From assembly GCA_963847055.1 (NCBI GenBank), contig CAWJYE010000008.1, positions 298,947-362,946 of the forward strand: a DNA stretch of 64,000 nucleotides, written 5' to 3'. The position numbers and the translations under genes are program-made. The stretch comes from an uncultured Solirubrobacterales bacterium (GTDB lineage: Bacteria > Actinomycetota > Thermoleophilia > Solirubrobacterales > Solirubrobacteraceae). Positions 31,705-41,353 of the stretch are shown in pieces. The notes beneath the pieces were generated by a model. It did not search any database, was not told the origin of the DNA, and worked only from the letters and a program-made list of their open reading frames with translations. Position 1 is the first letter of the stretch; each line of letters opens with the position of its first letter.

Positions 31705-33195
31705 CTACTCCGTCTCGGTCAGGACCGGCTCGCCGGCAACTCGGTCGGCTCGGTCGGGGCTACTCGCGGCGAGGGTGGGAGTTCGCGGCATCGCGGTCTC
31801 GGCGAGCGGGGTGGTGGCCTCCGATCCCGAGCCGGTGGCCTCGATTCGGCGGTCAGATCGGCGCCGGCCGGCGGGGCGGCCGTCGGGGCGGCCGTCGGGG
31901 GCAACCACTCGTATCAGGGCTTGCACGATCTCGGGATCAAACTGGGATCCGGCGTTCGCCAGCAGCTCGGCCAGCGCCTGGTCGTGCGAGCGGGCCTTCC
32001 GGTAGGAGCGATCGGTTCGCATCGCATTCCAGGTGTCACAGCAGGAGATGATGCGGGCCTCGAGCGGGATCTGGTTGCCGGCCAGTCGATCGGGATAACC
32101 CTCGCCGTCCCATCGCTCGTGGTGAGAGCGGACGATCTGGCCTACCTCGAGCATGAATCCGCCGACGCGCCGGAGCATCTTCTCGCCTTCCAGCGTGTGC
32201 GTCTTGATGAGCCGCCACTCGTTTGGATCAAGCTTGCCGGGCTTGTTGATGATCTCCTTGGGAATCGCGATCTTGCCGACATCGTGCAGCAGCGCGCCAA
32301 ACTCGAGGTTGCGCCGGCTCTCGGCGCCGAGACCAAGCTGATCGGCCACTGCCAGCGTCAGCCCGACGACCCCCTGGGTGTGCTCGCCGGTATAGCCATC
32401 GTCGGCCGCGATCACGTCCCCGAGCAGGAGGGCCGTCCCGCGATAGGTGTCATTGAGCTCCAGCAGGCTCTTGAGGCGGCGCTGGCGCTCGTGGGCGAAC
32501 ATCGCCATCAGCCCGAGGAGGGGAACCACGGCGATCACTGCGGCCGGGGCCGCATGAAGCTCCTCGGCCACGACCAGCCCCACGCCCGAGAGCGCGGCGT
32601 CGATGAAGTAGACCCAGCTCTCGCTCAGCTGCGAGCGGATGCGAGCGCCCCGAGCGATTTTGAAGTACACCGCTGAGGCCGCGAAGTCGCCGAGGAACTG
32701 CGCCGCGAGCGCGGCGATCAGCAGCCCCGGGCCCGCGTCGCGCGGCTCGACGTTGGCGAGCGCGAAGACCACCACAGGCCCGATCACAAACCACGCGTTG
32801 CTCGGCGTCCGCAGGAGCTTGCTGAGGCCGATCCGGCCCGCGACGACGTCGGGCAGACGAGCGGCCGCCAGGGCCACGACCACGGCGAGCGGTACCAGCG
32901 CGACCGGCGCGGCGAACAGCAGCGGGACGAACGCCAGCTGGGTTACGACCGTAAAGCCGAACGGGGTGTCAAAGCGCACCCGCGACGCGAGCGCCAACAC
33001 GGCCATGCAACCCACCGCGACCGCGGGCGCAAAGCCGTGCGGTGGTTGCAGCCACCACACGCCGAACACCGCAGTAGCGAACAGGACCCCAACCAGGGTC
33101 TCAGCCAGCAGCTCACGTCGCGTCATATCCGAAGACGCCCGGCGGAGAGTGTCGGCGAGGAGCTCCTGCTCCTCGAAGCTTGGATCCAGCGCCAT
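31705..33195 (-). CDS. Membrane-anchored HD-GYP cyclic-dinucleotide phosphodiesterase
   Basis: N-terminal multi-TM region, then YTGEHT, LLHDVGK, HHERWDGEGYPDRL, RIISCCDTWNAM. Confidence 0.9.
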   Translation of the reverse strand: MALDPSFEEQELLADTLRRASSDMTRRELLAETLVGVLFATAVFGVWWLQPPHGFAPAVAVGCMAVLALASRVRFDTPFGFTVVTQLAFVPLLFAAPVALVPLAVVVALAAARLPDVVAGRIGLSKLLRTPSNAWFVIGPVVVFALANVEPRDAGPGLLIAALAAQFLGDFAASAVYFKIARGARIRSQLSESWVYFIDAALSGVGLVVAEELHAAPAAVIAVVPLLGLMAMFAHERQRRLKSLLELNDTYRGTALLLGDVIAADDGYTGEHTQGVVGLTLAVADQLGLGAESRRNLEFGALLHDVGKIAIPKEIINKPGKLDPNEWRLIKTHTLEGEKMLRRVGGFMLEVGQIVRSHHERWDGEGYPDRLAGNQIPLEARIISCCDTWNAMRTDRSYRKARSHDQALAELLANAGSQFDPEIVQALIRVVAPDGRPDGRPAGRRRSDRRIEATGSGSEATTPLAETAMPRTPTLAASSPDRADRVAGEPVLTETE

Positions 33196-33335
33196 TCTGA
33201 GGCCAGTTATCGGCACGGCGCCGGGCAGTCTTAAAGATCGCGCCGGCGGCGGCGGCCCGCTCGAACATATGTCGAGTTTTCAGCTAACCCCCCTTTAGGC
33301 CTTGCCGCCGGGGCCGATGAGCCAGCTAAATCAAA

Positions 33336-33416
33336 ACTGAAAAGGGCAAACCTGGCGCGAGCCAGGGACGCAAAGCTAGAGGTCTCGGCAAGGGCTGAGA
33401 TAGCTCGGCCGCCAGT
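33336..33416 (+). ncRNA. c-di-GMP-I (GEMM) riboswitch aptamer
   Basis: GGGCAAA, P2 CCTGGC-GCGA-GCCAGG (GNRA loop), GACGCAAAGC, AGCTA/TAGCT and TCTCGGC-AAGG-GCTGAGA P3, ACTG/CAGT closing. Lies in sense just upstream of the RBS of the 33442 gene. Confidence 0.88.
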
Positions 33417-33441
33417 GCACACCACGGAAGGTGCGTACAGA

Positions 33442-34074
33442 ATGAAGCTGTACCTTTTCAGCCGTCGCCCCCGGGTCCTGGGGGCAGTAATCGCTGGGGC
33501 CGGCCTGGTGTCCGTACTCGCCTCCGGGGCCCCGGCTCAAGCAGCGTTGATCTCGACCAGCGCCTGCGACAACTCAGCGCTCACCCAGCCGTTTCAGCGC
33601 TGGGGCGACACGTCGTCCTACAAGTTGATCGCGGGTGGGTCATTCGAAAGCGGTGCCCCCGGTTGGACGCTTAGCAACGGCGCCCGGGTCGTCGCCGGTA
33701 GCGAGCCCTACGGTGTCACCGGCTCGGTCGGGAAAGCCTCGCTCTACCTACCCGCGGGGGCATCGGCGCAGTCGCCGCTCACCTGCGTCAACGCCGCCTA
33801 CCCCACCTTCCGCTTCCTGGCGCGCAACGACTGGACGCTCTCGGCCGTGCTCGTCCAGGTGGTCTACAGCGTGCCGCTGGTCGGGCCCGTCGCGGTTCCG
33901 GTCGGCGGGGTCGCCCTGAGCGGCACATGGCAGCCCACGATCCCGATGCTCACCGCGTCGGCGGTCCCGGGCTTGCTCGACGGCGGAACGACGCCGGTGG
34001 CGCTGCGGTTCACCGCTCTGCTCGGCGCGTCACACATCGATGACGTGTTCGTCGACCCACGCATGCACTACTGA
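33442..34074 (+). CDS. Secreted hypothetical protein, CBM/galactose-binding-like jelly-roll suspected
   Basis: Signal peptide ending in APAQA, GGSFE..GW motif, two Cys, C-terminal HIDDVFVDP. GGAAGG RBS. Confidence 0.7.
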   Translation: MKLYLFSRRPRVLGAVIAGAGLVSVLASGAPAQAALISTSACDNSALTQPFQRWGDTSSYKLIAGGSFESGAPGWTLSNGARVVAGSEPYGVTGSVGKASLYLPAGASAQSPLTCVNAAYPTFRFLARNDWTLSAVLVQVVYSVPLVGPVAVPVGGVALSGTWQPTIPMLTASAVPGLLDGGTTPVALRFTALLGASHIDDVFVDPRMHY

Positions 34075-34096
34075 GCCAGTGACACACGACAAGCCA

Positions 34097-34133
34097 CGAC
34101 GGGCCTCGCCGCTTTCCGGCGCGGGGCCCGTCG
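34097..34133. terminator. GC-rich stem-loop between convergent genes
   Basis: CGACGGGCC...CTTTC loop...GGCCCGTCG. No poly-U tract. Confidence 0.6.
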
Positions 34134-34160
34134 CGCGTTAAGCCACCGGACCCTCCGCCC

Positions 34161-34367
34161 CTAGCGGCGGCGTTCCTCGAGTATCAGGGCCAGCGTCGGA
34201 CAGGCGTCAACGGCCCGACGGGCGAGACCGAGGAGCTCGGAGGGGACCGCAGACTCGTCGAGTATCGGGTAGCCCCAGTCGTCGAGGCGGATCAGCTCGG
34301 GGAGGAGCTCCGCGCACAGGCCATGGGCGTCGCACATGATCGCGTTGACACGCAGGTGGGCACTCAT
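34161..34367 (-). CDS. Small ferredoxin ([3Fe-4S]-type)
   Basis: CDAHGLC...AVDACPTLAL. Confidence 0.85.
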   Translation of the reverse strand: MSAHLRVNAIMCDAHGLCAELLPELIRLDDWGYPILDESAVPSELLGLARRAVDACPTLALILEERRR

Positions 34368-35683
34368 CGGGCCGCCGCCCGACCGACCGCGGTCTTCGGG
34401 CGCGCCGACCGAGCGCCGACCACGGCACCGCTGAGCGGGAGCCCGGCTGGCCGGGCGACGCAGCGTTCCCGGCGGTGATGCTCGAGCTGATGGCCGAACA
34501 CGCTCAGCGCGCTCTCCACAAAGCGGGCGGCGCCGTCGGGGTGATGGCAGGCGCCGCGGCCCCGGATCTCGGCCGTCCAGCGGCGCAGACGCTCGATCTC
34601 CCGGGGCTCAGCCACGCCCTGCGCGAGCGCTTGGACAGAGTCGGCGATCGCGCGCAGGCCGAACACGCAGGGACCGCACTGTCCCGCCGACTGGTCGGCA
34701 AGGTAGCCGACGATGCGGGCTGACTCGTGCAGACCACAGGCACTTTCGCCCAGGGCGATCAGCACGCCGGAACCGAGGGCGCAGCCCACGCCCCGCAGTT
34801 CCTCGCGGGAAAGGCGAAGCCCGAGGGCGCGGTCGGCCTGCACCCAGGTGCCGAAGTAGCCGCCGACGAGAAGGGCTTGCAGAGGCTCGGTGGCGCCGCC
34901 GGCGGCCGCCAGCAGGTCGACCATCGGCGTGCCGAAGGCCAGCTCGTAAACCCCGGGCGTGTGAACCGCGCCCGAGATCGTGACCAGGGCCGAGCCGGGA
35001 TCGGCGTCGCTGCCGAGCTCGCGAAACCAGTCGGGACCGAAGCGGGCGATGAGAGCCATCTGCGCGCAGGTCTCGCAGTTCTGGACCAGGGTCGGGCGCC
35101 CCCCCAAGCCCCGCTCGTAGGGGCGCGGCGGGACGAAGGTCGGCTTGGCGATCCCCCGGGAGAGGAAGTTCAGAACGGCTGTCTCCTCACCCGTCACGTA
35201 GCCCTCGGGCCCGGCCACCACTGAGAAGGCGATCCTCTCGTCGTCGCGGACGGCCGCGGCCCCCTCGAGTGCCCTGATGACGGCCGGGGTGCCGTCGCCG
35301 ACCTTGATCATGACCTCGCGGGCGCCAACCGCACGGGCAGCCAGCACCGCCCCATCGAGGACGAGATGGGGTAGCCGAGCGAGCAGTAGGTGGTCCTTGG
35401 CACTGGCCGGCTCGGTCTCGGAGCCGTTGACGACCACGGTCGCCGCGCCGCGCCGCTCGGCGACCGAGCGCAGCTTGACCGCGGTCGGGAAGTCAGCTCC
35501 ACCGCGACCCCGCAGGCCGCTGCGGTGCACGAGATCGATCAGCTCGGGGACGGCGATTTGGGGCATCGGCCCGTGGACGGCGCGGTGATCGGCGAGGGTC
35601 ATGGTCGCCCCCGGCGGACCGAGGCCAGCGAGCAGGCGCGGGAGACCGGACGGGCCGCCAACGGCACGAGGAGGACGGCTCAT
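34364..35683 (-). CDS. Stand-alone NuoF/NqrF-like FMN/NADH-binding Fe-S flavoprotein
   Basis: GLRGRGGADFP, NGSETEP, YVTGEETA, NCET, SAGQCGPC...GACHHPDG. No other nuo genes nearby. Confidence 0.85.
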   Translation of the reverse strand: MSRPPRAVGGPSGLPRLLAGLGPPGATMTLADHRAVHGPMPQIAVPELIDLVHRSGLRGRGGADFPTAVKLRSVAERRGAATVVVNGSETEPASAKDHLLLARLPHLVLDGAVLAARAVGAREVMIKVGDGTPAVIRALEGAAAVRDDERIAFSVVAGPEGYVTGEETAVLNFLSRGIAKPTFVPPRPYERGLGGRPTLVQNCETCAQMALIARFGPDWFRELGSDADPGSALVTISGAVHTPGVYELAFGTPMVDLLAAAGGATEPLQALLVGGYFGTWVQADRALGLRLSREELRGVGCALGSGVLIALGESACGLHESARIVGYLADQSAGQCGPCVFGLRAIADSVQALAQGVAEPREIERLRRWTAEIRGRGACHHPDGAARFVESALSVFGHQLEHHRRERCVARPAGLPLSGAVVGARSARPKTAVGRAAAR

Positions 35684-36777
35684 TGGCTTCCCAGCGAAGC
35701 GGTGAGCGAGCCGGACACGGTACCTGTTTGCTGATCGATGTTGAGGCGCACCCTGAGGGTCAGGGCGCGACCGCCGCCCTTGACCTTGGCCACGAAGTCC
35801 TGACCCGCGAGTGAGCTGATCTGGCCGGTCAAAACCGGCGACAGACCGGTCTGGAGCAGGTCCACCTGGCTGCCGGTCATCGAGAGCCCGCCGCCGGGGA
35901 TCGGAGCCCCGGCCAGCCGGACCCGAAGCCGGCCGCGGGCGCCGCCGCTCACGCGCAGGTCGAGATCGACCAGGGCTCCGCCGGCCACGCTGTTCTGGAC
36001 GACGCTCCCCGACAGATTGGCCGTGAAGGGCCTGGGCGCCGCCGACCGCCCCGGGACCGGCGTGCTCGCGCGCACGACCCGCGCCGGCGTGGCCGTAGCG
36101 AGTAGGGTCGCGGGCGTCCCGGCGCGCTTGGCCCAGCCTTTCTCAAGCGGCCCGAGCAGGGTGAAGACGACGATGCCGACCGGCACGATCACAGTGAGCG
36201 CGATCGCGGAAGCACGGAGCCCGGTCGGGCTCCACTCGGCGCGGGCCAGGCGCAGGCCGGCCGCTGCGGAGACGAGCGCGACGCATGCCGCCGTGAGAGC
36301 GAGCATCCACCAGACCTTGGTGTCGCTGCCGGTGCCGAGGCCGTGCAGCACTGCCACTGGCCAGCTGGCGTAGGCGAACCAGTGAACGGCCCGCCAGCTC
36401 TGATACCCGAGCCGGCGCCGAGCCAGGCTGGTGACGGTCAGCGCCAGGATGAGGTCAAAGGAGAGCGCGCCGAGCCCGAGCCAGAGCGGACGGTAGCTGG
36501 CGCCGAAGGGGATCACGGCGGCCGTAAGCGAGATCGGCGCAAAGGTATCCAGCACGCTGGTGGCGATGTGGATGAGGAGAAAGACGACGACCATCAGCGA
36601 CACGTCACGGTGCACGGTCTCGACCGCGAACCGGGGCCAGCGGCCGCCGGAGACGCGCATCGAGCCGGCGATGCCGATCACCACGCTGGCCGTGAGCAGT
36701 ACCAGCGAAACGGCTCCTGACCCGCGGGTCAGGTACCAAGAGATGCTCGGGCCGGCCGTCGCCAGGGGGGTGATCAC
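35680..36777 (-). CDS. Ferric-reductase-like (MsrQ-type) diheme membrane protein with C-terminal soluble extension
   Basis: WYLTRGSG, four His (VHRDVS, IHIATS, VHWFAY, LHGLG), GTGSDT. GTG start overlaps the apbE stop. Confidence 0.82.
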   Translation of the reverse strand: MITPLATAGPSISWYLTRGSGAVSLVLLTASVVIGIAGSMRVSGGRWPRFAVETVHRDVSLMVVVFLLIHIATSVLDTFAPISLTAAVIPFGASYRPLWLGLGALSFDLILALTVTSLARRRLGYQSWRAVHWFAYASWPVAVLHGLGTGSDTKVWWMLALTAACVALVSAAAGLRLARAEWSPTGLRASAIALTVIVPVGIVVFTLLGPLEKGWAKRAGTPATLLATATPARVVRASTPVPGRSAAPRPFTANLSGSVVQNSVAGGALVDLDLRVSGGARGRLRVRLAGAPIPGGGLSMTGSQVDLLQTGLSPVLTGQISSLAGQDFVAKVKGGGRALTLRVRLNIDQQTGTVSGSLTASLGSQ

Positions 36778-37724
36778 GCCACTGCCCTGACAACTGCCGC
36801 GGCCGGCAGGTCGTCGCCAGCGGCGGGCCAGCCAGCCACGTGTCGCACGCGTCCGGCGGCGTCGACGAGGCGGCTCGGCAGCCCGACCGCCTCGAGCCAA
36901 CCGGGGGCGCGCTCGCCGCGGATGATGGCGGCGGTGCTGGCGATATTGGCATCGAGGCAGCTCGCCGCGGCGACGCTGACCGTCTGCCAGCCAGCGGACA
37001 CGGGACGCCCGCTGGCCGGGTCGAGCAGGTGATGGCGGGCCTCGCCCTGAGTGTGCCAGCGGCGTGTGGTGGTGCTCGAGGTAGCCAGGCCGCCGGACGC
37101 GATCGTGATCGTCTGGCCGGGGGCATCGAGCCCGGAGCGGTGATCGGCCGTCACACGGATCAGCCAGCCGGGGGTGGGCGCGGGACCGGCGGTGGCCATA
37201 TCGCCGCCGAAGCTGATCAGGACACTGCTGCCGGTGGCCTCGTGCACCGCGGCGGCAGCCTGGTCGGCGGCCAGTGCCTTGGCGGTCGCGCCGAGGTCGA
37301 GGATCACGCGCTCGGGCAGCGAGATGGTGCTCGCGACCGGGTCTATCCGGATCGCCCGCCAGCCCGGTAGCGAGGCGAAACGCAGCGAGCCGCCCCGACC
37401 ATCCAGACCCAAGTCAAAGTCGCGGTCGTAGCCGAGCGCGATCAGCGCCGCGCCCAGCGAGGGATCGACGTCACCGTCGGTGAGCGAGGCGGCGCGCAGC
37501 GCGGCCTGCACGGCCTCCAGGAGCAGCGGCGATACGCGCGTCGGGCGCCCCCCGGCCCGGTTGAGCGCGCTGATCTCCGAGTCGTCGCGAAACCGCGAGC
37601 AGGCGTGGTCAAAGGCGTCCACGATTCGCTGCACGACCGCGACCACTGCTGTGAGCTGCTCGCAATCGGACGTCACCACCGATGCCGTGCTTCCGAACGC
37701 CGGAAAGCTGGCAGACGCGCTCAA
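36774..37724 (-). CDS. apbE: FAD:protein FMN transferase
   Basis: CSRFRDDSEIS, TDGDVDPSLG, LDLGATAKA, GGDM, LATSST, HHLLDPASG, ANIASTAA. Confidence 0.9.
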   Translation of the reverse strand: MSASASFPAFGSTASVVTSDCEQLTAVVAVVQRIVDAFDHACSRFRDDSEISALNRAGGRPTRVSPLLLEAVQAALRAASLTDGDVDPSLGAALIALGYDRDFDLGLDGRGGSLRFASLPGWRAIRIDPVASTISLPERVILDLGATAKALAADQAAAAVHEATGSSVLISFGGDMATAGPAPTPGWLIRVTADHRSGLDAPGQTITIASGGLATSSTTTRRWHTQGEARHHLLDPASGRPVSAGWQTVSVAAASCLDANIASTAAIIRGERAPGWLEAVGLPSRLVDAAGRVRHVAGWPAAGDDLPAAAVVRAVA

Positions 37725-39539: not shown

Positions 39540-39634
39540 GGGCCGCCAAAACGCATCAAAGTTGTGTTTTCATCATTAAGCGGGGCAGTTCCGAGTAAGA
39601 TCGTCTCCGGATCACACACCACGGATGGTTGCTG

Positions 39635-41353
39635 ATGTCTCCTGAACAGGCAGGGTCGGCGGCCTCGGCGCGCGTTCTGTTGATCGAAGACGATCCCCGC
39701 GCGGCGATGCTGATCGGCGAGATGCTCCGAGCGGCATGGGCTCAAGGGCTGGTCATCGCCCACGCCCAACGCTTCGCCGACGCCACCCAGGAGCTGATCG
39801 ATCACGGCGCCACCTGTGTCCTGCTCGACATTCCTGCCGATGATCCCGATCCGCTGCGCACGCTCGAGGCGCTGCGCAGCGCTGCTCCCGATGTCCCGGT
39901 GATCGTGCTCTCGGACCGGGCCGACGAGGACTTCGGCCTGGCCGCGGTCACAGCCGGCGCCCAGGATTTTCTGCGCACGGCAGAGCTGAACCCCGTCTTG
40001 CTGGCTCGCGCCGTGCGCTACGCGATCGAGCGCAAGCGCTCGGAGGTCGATCTCGCCCACCAGGCGCTGCACGACCCGCTCACCGGGCTGCCCAACCGCG
40101 CCTTGTTCATCGACCGCCTGACCGTGGCCCTGGATCGCTCGCGTCGCACCGGCGCGCCCGTCGCCGTGCTGTTCCTCGACGTGGACACCTTCAAGCAGAT
40201 CAACGACACGATGGGGCACGCGGCGGGGGATCAGCTCCTCACCGTGCTGGCCGATCGCTTCCACCCCATGCTGCGCCCGATGGACACCGTCGCGCGCTTC
40301 GGGGGCGACGAGTTCACGTTCCTGTTCGAGGAGCTCGAGTCCGAGCGCGAAGCGGTGCTGATCGCCGAGCGGATAACCCGCGCGGCGAGCCAGCCACTGA
40401 TGCTCGGCGACGGCGAGATGACGGTCGCGGTCAGCATCGGGATCGCGATCGTGAGCGATCCATCCGTCACCCCCGACTCGGTGATTCGTGACGCCGATAC
40501 GGCCATGTATCGCGCCAAGGAGCGAGGCGGGGCGCGCTTTGAGCTCTACGACGAGAACTCGCGCCACCGCGCCAGCGAGCGGCTCGAGTTCGAGGACGCG
40601 CTCCGTCAAGCCCTCGAGCGTTCCGAGCTGCGGGTGCACTATCAGCCCCAGGTCACCCTCAACGGCGAGACCGGACTGTCGGGCTTCGAAGCCCTGGTCC
40701 GCTGGGAACACCCCCAGCGCGGCTTGATCGACGCGGCGGAGTTCCTCGCCCTGGCCGAGTCGACCGGGCTGATCGTGCCGATCGGTTTGTGGGTGCTCGG
40801 ACAGGCGCTGCGCCAGGTCGCCCGGTGGCGCCAGTCGCGCCCGGGGATCACCGTCTCGGTCAACCTGTCGGCTCGCCAGCTCGCCGACCCGGGGCTGGTG
40901 GCGAGCCTGGCAACGGCGATCGACGACAGCGGGGCCGATCCCGGCGTGCTCTATCTCGAGGTCACCGAGGACACCGTGCAGAAGGATCCCGAGCTCGCCG
41001 AGCGGATGCTGGAAGCGTTCAGCCAGCTCGGCGTCAAGCTGGCGGTGGACGATTTCGGCACCGGTCACTCTTCCGTGCAGAGCCTGCGCCACCTGCCGCT
41101 GGAGGCGATCAAGATCGACCCTTCCTTTGTGGCCGGCCTGGGGGCCAATCCCGACGACGCCGCGCTGCTCGGGGCGCTGGTCGAGCTCGGGCATGCGCTG
41201 GGCGTAACGGTGGTCGCCGAGGGGGTCGAGACCGATACCCAGCTCGCTCACCTGCGAGACCTGGGCTGCGACGGCGCCCAGGGGTATCTGTTCAGCCGCC
41301 CGCTCCCCGAGGACGGCGTCCACGCCCTGCTCGGGCCGGGGGTCATGAATTGA
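39635..41353 (+). CDS. REC-GGDEF-EAL diguanylate cyclase/phosphodiesterase
   Basis: REC domain, HDPLTGLPNR, RPMD I-site, RFGGDEF, FEALVRW, SVNLS, LEVTE, DDFGTG, IKID, AEGVET, QGY. Confidence 0.95.
   Translation: MSPEQAGSAASARVLLIEDDPRAAMLIGEMLRAAWAQGLVIAHAQRFADATQELIDHGATCVLLDIPADDPDPLRTLEALRSAAPDVPVIVLSDRADEDFGLAAVTAGAQDFLRTAELNPVLLARAVRYAIERKRSEVDLAHQALHDPLTGLPNRALFIDRLTVALDRSRRTGAPVAVLFLDVDTFKQINDTMGHAAGDQLLTVLADRFHPMLRPMDTVARFGGDEFTFLFEELESEREAVLIAERITRAASQPLMLGDGEMTVAVSIGIAIVSDPSVTPDSVIRDADTAMYRAKERGGARFELYDENSRHRASERLEFEDALRQALERSELRVHYQPQVTLNGETGLSGFEALVRWEHPQRGLIDAAEFLALAESTGLIVPIGLWVLGQALRQVARWRQSRPGITVSVNLSARQLADPGLVASLATAIDDSGADPGVLYLEVTEDTVQKDPELAERMLEAFSQLGVKLAVDDFGTGHSSVQSLRHLPLEAIKIDPSFVAGLGANPDDAALLGALVELGHALGVTVVAEGVETDTQLAHLRDLGCDGAQGYLFSRPLPEDGVHALLGPGVMN

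Follow-up and report, generated by a model that had tools for sequence, protein, structure and literature searches.

The DNA analysed here contains a canonical c-di-GMP-I (GEMM-I) riboswitch aptamer, which, in a reading held with moderate confidence, acts as a translational ON switch by means of a competing helix that involves codons 4-7 of the downstream gene. The window, by which the whole analysed stretch of 64,000 nt is meant, derives from contig CAWJYE010000008.1 of assembly GCA_963847055.1, assigned to an uncultured Solirubrobacterales bacterium (Solirubrobacteraceae). It has a G+C content of 69.5%, and its sequence is seen again in soil metagenomes among public reads. The Solirubrobacteraceae belong to the class Thermoleophilia of the phylum Actinomycetota, and all relatives are Solirubrobacteraceae or Solirubrobacterales, in agreement with the actinobacterial host that a preliminary description had proposed. 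A well-supported c-di-GMP-I riboswitch is thus placed in Thermoleophilia, a little-studied and mostly uncultured soil class of Actinomycetota. The class of riboswitch is already known and detectable with Rfam, and the window element is a further member of it. Three aspects go beyond routine annotation: a misleading variant label, a pair of HD-GYP and riboswitch genes that is conserved across the order, and an expression platform that appears to reach into the open reading frame (ORF) with a footprint in codon usage. For comparison, 80 genome loci (one of which, L062, is truncated) and 80 metagenome loci were retrieved, and an alignment of 73 distinct ortholog aptamers (A2) was made.

When the whole window is searched with all 4227 Rfam models, a single match reaches gathering level, at 33336-33417 on the forward strand, which belongs to the clan c-di-GMP-I (CL00126). 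The match covers the full model (positions 1-80) of RF03167 with 65.4 bits (gathering score 59; E 3.3e-13), and thus lies above the threshold below which the preliminary description would have given up the assignment. The elements of the aptamer are the following.

33336..33417, + strand: c-di-GMP-I (GEMM-I) aptamer, from Rfam cmscan and from RNAalifold on 73 orthologs
33336..33339, + strand: 5' strand of P1, ACUG, with its partner CAGU at 33413-33416, from the Rfam structure line
33344-33352, + strand: motif GGGCAAACC, read in the sequence
33345, + strand: equivalent of G20, which recognises G-alpha, from alignment to the RF01051/RF03167 consensus; G in 73/73 aligned orthologs
33351..33366, + strand: P2 hairpin of 6 bp with the GNRA loop GCGA at 33357-33360; 99.8% of cells paired
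33367-33376, + strand: motif GACGCAAAGC, read in the sequence
33372, + strand: equivalent of A47, where a G would define the 'GGC' variant; A here and in 73/73
33374..33410, + strand: P3 hairpin with AGAUAGC, a bulged A and an AG bulge, without the 11-nt tetraloop receptor
33412, + strand: equivalent of C92, the Watson-Crick partner of G-beta; model position 75, invariant in 73 orthologs

The secondary structure is strongly conserved. Over the 73 aptamers, 90.7% of the cells are paired in the GEMM-I structure, compared to 30-40% when the partners are slid along the alignment, and none of 500 shuffles attains the former value. Five of the six P2 pairs show compensatory changes, while in P1, where 81% of the cells are paired, one pair shows an AU-to-GC change. 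RNAalifold, applied unguided to the 73 orthologs, recovers P2 and P3, and the alignment shows no variation in the AAA internal loop or in the AAA linker. [quoted passage not shown] It also fits the original description of GEMM RNAs (PMC1950547), with a GYRA loop that lacks the 11-nt receptor and with bulges near the base of P3. The GEMM-I motifs listed in the preliminary description are all present at their positions in the window, and its identification as GEMM-I is borne out by the clan match above gathering level, by the retention of the element in about 76 of 80 orthologous loci, and by the covariation in P2. The closing pair of P3 next to the pocket (33374/33410; A2 columns 40/81) is A-U in 28 orthologs and an A.C mismatch in 45, the window included; the mismatch represents a lineage-specific departure from the Rfam consensus.

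The aptamer core is located upstream of the ortholog of the same gene, at the same position, in 76/80 genome loci, and it is also found in most metagenome loci. Its 3' end lies 25 nt before the ATG in the window, a 5' regulatory position that is common to about 76/80 loci. In one locus, L019, the aptamer is detected by the covariance model only, and two of the 80 genome loci (L055 and L065) contain orthologous genes that are not preceded by an aptamer. Together these observations identify the window element as a genuine, ordinary c-di-GMP-I riboswitch aptamer.

The best-scoring model is not the one expected. The preliminary assignment to the Rfam c-di-GMP-I group stands at the level of the clan, but the top model is RF03167 (c-di-GMP-I-GGC) and not RF01051. 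We take 'GGC' to denote G20/G47/C92, as opposed to the canonical G20/A47/C92, on the basis of a comparison of the two consensus sequences. The variant was reportedly defined by Weinberg et al. (2017, in PNAS), and its name is read here as referring to positions 20/47/92. The RF01051 consensus contains ...GGGGACGC-A-AAgCc..., and that of RF03167 contains ...GGGACGC-G-AAgCc...; the A or G after GACGC is the sole difference in the pocket, since both have the G that precedes the paired GC (G20) and the C immediately ahead of the 3' strand of P1 (C92). The window carries G20, A47 and C92 at 33345, 33372 and 33412, which is the pocket of RF01051. An A at the position equivalent to A47 is found not only in the window and in all aligned orthologs, but also in every aptamer found among the metagenome loci.

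A GGC variant with an altered pocket and perhaps another ligand is therefore very improbable, although RF03167 gives the best score both for the window and for 15 of 20 tested orthologous loci (59.7-68.4 bits; RF01051 is best in the other five, with 41-65 bits). All 20 loci carry A at position 47, and for one and the same orthologous element the best match alternates between RF03167 and RF01051, so the RF03167 label reflects similarity of the scaffold and not of the pocket. The similarity to the variant includes the P3 scaffold (GCcAcGGguCuc...GacAGCC) and a P1 that lies within the model. A second family of the clan passed its own gathering score on the window; it is probably RF01051 (gathering score 35 bits), the window score of which is hidden by the clan competition in Rfam. 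Because of the A at position 47 and the canonical pocket, the window element is filed here as an ordinary c-di-GMP-I aptamer. As a warning for annotation, clan competition in Rfam can evidently name RNAs with a canonical pocket as the orphan 'GGC' variant.

An equally slight probability is assigned to a 3'3'-cGAMP sensor of the GEMM-Ib type, or to a bispecific sensor, which would be built on the same scaffold. The roles of G20, A47 and C92 are described in the literature (PMC6140456; for C92 also PMC11705072), and an A at position 20 would suggest 3'3'-cGAMP (PMC6140456). The Geobacter GEMM-Ib riboswitches for c-AMP-GMP have a fold identical to that of the window aptamer, but they carry the A at position 20 (PMC6140456), whereas the window family has G, with the exception of a single ortholog. 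Alignment to the RF01051/RF03167 consensus confirms the G that had been noted at 33345, and its invariance in the 73 aligned orthologs upholds the earlier prediction of c-di-GMP rather than cGAMP as the ligand. In addition, the conserved neighbouring gene encodes a member of the HD-GYP family of c-di-GMP enzymes, which argues against a cGAMP sensor. Ligand binding by the window aptamer is very likely. The exceptional ortholog, L019 (L019:1876-1950; AAAAGAGCAAACC), has at position 20 the A that is linked to 3'3'-cGAMP in GEMM-Ib, and its coding sequence (CDS) reads CTC where the complementary element described below has CTT; as it comes from a single 2.6-kb contig of a metagenome-assembled genome, its A20 could reflect either genuine variation or a fault in the assembly.

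Downstream of the aptamer, three further elements are relevant to the mechanism of control.

33415..33438, + strand: Shine-Dalgarno (SD) hairpin directly 3' of P1, stem GUGC-CACC/GGUG-GCAC, RNAfold -9.8 kcal/mol
33426..33433, + strand: SD region GGAAGGUG, read in the sequence, 8 nt before the ATG, conserved
33453..33461, + strand: CCUUUUCAG in codons 4-7 ('DC'), the perfect complement of CUGAAAAGG (33337-33345)

In the region 33100-34300 no site resembling an intrinsic terminator is present, which accords with the lack of a poly-U terminator noticed earlier. The distance from P1 to the ribosome binding site (RBS) had been given as about 10 nt, and with the end of P1 at 33416 and the SD sequence (GGAAGG) at 33426-33431 the gap indeed amounts to 9-10 nt. 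Since a terminator is absent and the SD hairpin directly adjoins P1, control is likely to be exerted at translation initiation, as had already been supposed. The SD hairpin has the composition GUGCACACC-ACGGAA-GGUGCGUAC, which positions the GGAA of the SD sequence in the loop and GGUG in the stem, with the ATG 8 nt further downstream; the two base pairs at its bottom extend into the 3' strand of P1. The hairpin is conserved in the clade of the window and covaries with another clade (CACC/GGUG versus AGCC/GGCU). The same design, with AGCC...GGCU or AGCCU...AGGCU, recurs in other clades, and in the second clade the anti-SD sequence AGCCU overlaps the 3' strand of P1.

The segment CUGAAAAGG comprises the 5' strand of P1, J1/2, G19 and G20, while its complement CCUUUUCAG is read in the ORF as tAC CUU UUC AGc. 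The duplex of the two would have 9 bp and a calculated energy of -10.6 kcal/mol, compared to -1.8 for P1. A fold in which this long-range helix is enforced reaches -56.9 kcal/mol, less than 1 kcal/mol from the minimum free energy (MFE, -57.8) and 7.6 kcal/mol below the aptamer fold (-49.3). The helix forms part of the unconstrained MFE structure in three orthologous loci (L010, L032 and L061); in the MFE structure of the window itself, codons 4-7 pair with the 5' arm of P3 and not with the 5' strand of P1. As the helix consumes the 5' strand of P1 together with G20, it is mutually exclusive with P1 and the pocket. The helix is newly described in this analysis. The expression platform accordingly appears to reach beyond 33441, the end given in the preliminary description, into codons 4-7.

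Codon usage points in the same direction. Among 28 distinct CDS of the clade of the window, codons 5-7 show no synonymous variation at all (Leu CTT 28/28, Phe TTC 28/28, Ser AGC 26/26), whereas 86 other codons with a conserved amino acid have a mean synonymous entropy of 0.98 bit. CTT is moreover rare in these genes, where it accounts for 3.2% of the Leu codons elsewhere. From these patterns, selection on codons 4-7 apparently acts on the RNA and not on the peptide.

A perfect complement of at least 7 nt is present in the first 60 nt of the CDS in 39/77 loci, as opposed to 2/616 control windows, although these loci are related sequences and represent only a few independent events. The complement occurs in several registers, as CCUUUUCAG at +12, as (C)CCUUUUCA at +17 and as UUCAGUU at +4, in differing peptide contexts, and the metagenome loci L088, L093 and L112 add further contexts. 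In group C the complement lies at +4, adjoining the start codon. In L032, five A residues in the aptamer strand are matched by five U residues in the CDS, and in L084 an A-to-G change retains a G-U pair. In L055 (L055:2780-3040), aptamer and complement are both lost, while the SD hairpin is kept and the codons now read GGA CUA AUC AGC. The changes on both sides in L020 are not compensatory, and neither are those in L019. In 25/77 genome loci, about a third, a complement of at least 5 nt is absent from the first 60 nt of the CDS; these loci have an anti-SD sequence overlapping the 3' strand of P1 as an alternative platform. A more far-reaching reading is proposed only tentatively, its chance as a whole being put slightly below even: in Solirubrobacterales, codons of the ORF would have become the competitor of P1 that occupies G20, independently in three or more registers (+4, +12 and +17), which would constrain synonymous sites and the conserved N-terminal 'LFS' and would yield a switch that turns ON a secreted glycan-binding protein inherited together with an HD-GYP phosphodiesterase. 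If the helix with codons 4-7 proves true, it would provide a clear example from nature of a riboswitch with its platform inside an ORF, and its measurable footprint in codon usage could serve to find similar platforms elsewhere.

A mechanism can be envisaged on this basis. Without ligand, CUGAAAAGG would pair with CCUUUUCAG in the 9-bp long-range helix or, in the window, possibly in the nearly isoenergetic variant with the 5' arm of P3. The ligand-free helix would destroy the pocket and enclose the SD hairpin, the AUG and the first codons in one structured domain. c-di-GMP would bind probably during transcription, before the ORF strand emerges, and would lock P1 (ACUG/CAGU) and the pocket, leaving +12..+20 free. 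The released coding-region strand may then ease initiation, which would make the element an ON switch. The locus would in this way constitute a small c-di-GMP module of a degrading enzyme and a c-di-GMP-induced extracellular protein, as follows from the HD-GYP gene being the conserved partner.

The direction of switching is less firmly indicated than the nature of the aptamer. When the aptamer is enforced in models of the 73 leaders, the RBS window opens further in 56 of them (mean unpaired 0.53 versus 0.43), which favours activation by c-di-GMP over its opposite, a translational OFF switch in which P1, stabilised by the ligand, stacks on the SD hairpin and reinforces the masking of the SD, with the ligand-free long-range helix as a permissive or neutral state. 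Such stacking is geometrically conceivable, as P1 (end 33416) and the SD hairpin (start 33417) are contiguous and could be coaxial. The SD proper, moreover, is more open with the aptamer enforced in only 30/73 leaders. For the window, both modelled states leave the SD roughly half paired, and enforcing the aptamer makes the SD less accessible (0.33 unpaired versus 0.50) and likewise the AUG (0.68 versus 0.93); only +12..+20 gain in accessibility, and the overall gain is small (0.40-0.43 versus 0.53). A helix that begins at +12 or +17 also lies at the margin of the 30S footprint or outside it. An OFF direction is reported for Vc2 (bioRxiv 10.1101/617340), which among translational c-di-GMP-I switches has been studied best. 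Against inhibition by the ligand stands the design of other clades, where the competitor of P1 is an anti-SD sequence or a +4 strand by the start codon, both of which have ON-switch logic; an OFF switch would also leave the strong selection on codons 4-7 unexplained.

Alternatively, the main output might be Rho-dependent termination or mRNA stability, with the helix between the 5' end and the CDS protecting or exposing the 5' end or Rho-loading sites. The lack of an intrinsic terminator is compatible with this idea, 5'-end-dependent decay could respond to a helix in which the outermost 5' part of the leader is tied up, and control of RNA stability is reported for Vc2 in the same source (bioRxiv 10.1101/617340). 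The conserved SD hairpin and the complements at +4 to +20 point instead to the initiation region, and an output of this kind is considered improbable. Because the window gains little accessibility and none at the SD proper, c-di-GMP is proposed to turn translation ON with moderate confidence only, an OFF switch being unlikely yet carrying appreciable weight, and the remainder falling to Rho or stability control.

Several known systems offer points of comparison. The add adenine riboswitch of Vibrio vulnificus is a translational ON switch whose RNA, when no ligand is bound, engages a strand of the aptamer in pairing with the initiation region. By analogy, the window riboswitch would likewise rely on a P1 that is stabilised by the ligand and competes with a helix masking the initiation region; it would differ in that codons 4-7 provide the masked strand, whose partner is the 5' strand of P1, while the SD resides in a separate hairpin. 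With Vc2 (Vibrio cholerae, upstream of tfoY) the window riboswitch has in common the aptamer class, the pocket G20/A47/C92, the AAA linker and an action at the post-transcriptional or translational level without a classic terminator. In contrast to Vc2, however, which has a GAAA tetraloop and its receptor, the window aptamer has a GCGA loop without receptor, a competitor of P1 inside the ORF, a host of a different phylum and a predicted ON rather than the OFF direction reported for Vc2 (bioRxiv 10.1101/617340). Bc1 and Cd1 (Bacillus and Clostridioides) have the same aptamer class and likewise control surface or extracellular functions, but they use rho-independent terminators (PMC11218506, PMC9262584), of which none was found for the window riboswitch.

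The two genes on either side of the intergenic region are the following.

33442..34074, + strand: downstream gene for a 210-aa secreted protein with a signal peptide, two conserved Cys and a CBM-like beta-jelly-roll
31705..33216, - strand: divergent HD-GYP gene for a predicted membrane-anchored c-di-GMP phosphodiesterase (Pfam HD_5)

The 210-aa protein has 1475 homologs, of which those with a named source are from Solirubrobacteraceae or from metagenome-assembled genomes of Actinomycetota, and no sequence match in Pfam, NCBIfam or the PDB. Its AlphaFold (AF2) model (pLDDT 66) has an all-beta core at residues 45-205, for which Foldseek retrieves jelly-rolls of the CBM4/6/16/22/61 and MAM types with E-values of 5e-6 to 1e-3 and target-normalised TM-scores up to 0.65. 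A secreted glycan-binding or adhesion protein is a reasonable though weak guess from this predicted fold. High c-di-GMP is usually linked to adhesion and matrix functions, and the induction of a secreted binding protein by an ON switch would be in keeping with this link. The secreted protein of CBM-like fold, partnered with the HD-GYP enzyme, is a first likely c-di-GMP effector output in Thermoleophilia. A Tat signal (SRR) was also considered for the conserved N-terminus and was ruled out, as most orthologs have SRH.

The HD-GYP protein consists of 503 aa with a hydrophobic N-terminal half. It matches Pfam HD_5 (PF13487) with an E-value of 5.6e-38 and contains the motif HHERWDGEGYP (SHHERWDGEGYP), which corresponds to HHExxDGxGYP; as judged from its sequence, the gene at 31705-33216 on the reverse strand is thus of the HD-GYP type, as the preliminary description had it. 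According to tblastn, the HD-GYP ortholog adjoins the riboswitch gene in 74/80 loci, mostly in divergent and sometimes in downstream arrangement, whereas the remaining neighbours in the window are common only to the two closest relatives; HD-GYP and riboswitch genes therefore form a conserved pair.

Among these other neighbours, the genes at 34364-37724 on the reverse strand, for a NuoF-like FMN/4Fe-4S protein, a ferric-reductase-like membrane protein and ApbE (flavin transferase), form a neighbourhood found only in the two closest relatives, L001 and L002. About 6 kb downstream of the riboswitch, at 39629-41353 on the forward strand, an ORF of 574 aa has the motifs RFGGDEF and EALVR, and its product is probably a GGDEF-EAL protein of c-di-GMP turnover, which would accord with a c-di-GMP module at the locus.

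The intergenic region contains one further conserved element.

33260..33276, no strand assigned: motif CTCGAACATATGTCGAG, conserved in the intergenic region with the family form TCGAACA-NN-CGTCCA; candidate for a shared operator or promoter element

Loci of both clades carry the motif in the stretch that separates the divergent HD-GYP and riboswitch genes, and they agree in its distance to the aptamer, which it precedes by about 60-75 nt in most loci; within the window the motif is unique and not enriched. It resembles half of the actinobacterial SOS/Cheo box, and a LexA/SOS box was rejected for TCGAACA-NN-CGTCCA, as the match is restricted to that half and the window has no further copies. 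A scan of the intergenic region for sigma-70 promoters gave no match. At 33313-33320 of the window and at the equivalent sites in L023-L079, two sequences are seen: the clade of the window keeps CCGAT(G/C), some 20-27 nt ahead of the aptamer, and the second clade has the sigma-70-like TTGCC-N17-CATGCT in its place; from the sequences, the type of promoter seems to differ between the clades. A sigma-28/WhiG-type promoter, considered on the basis of GCCGATGA (33313-33320), was discarded, as the orthologs have no TAAA at the required spacing of about 15 nt.

The public reads that cover the locus are soil-metagenome DNA contigs; one contig designated 'RNA-Seq' spans both divergent genes and is therefore uninformative on the start of transcription. 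Soil-metagenome contigs align with window positions 33342-33433 in a match that is confined to the aptamer, after which they diverge; this similarity suggests that the same aptamer scaffold may also occur upstream of other genes in related organisms.
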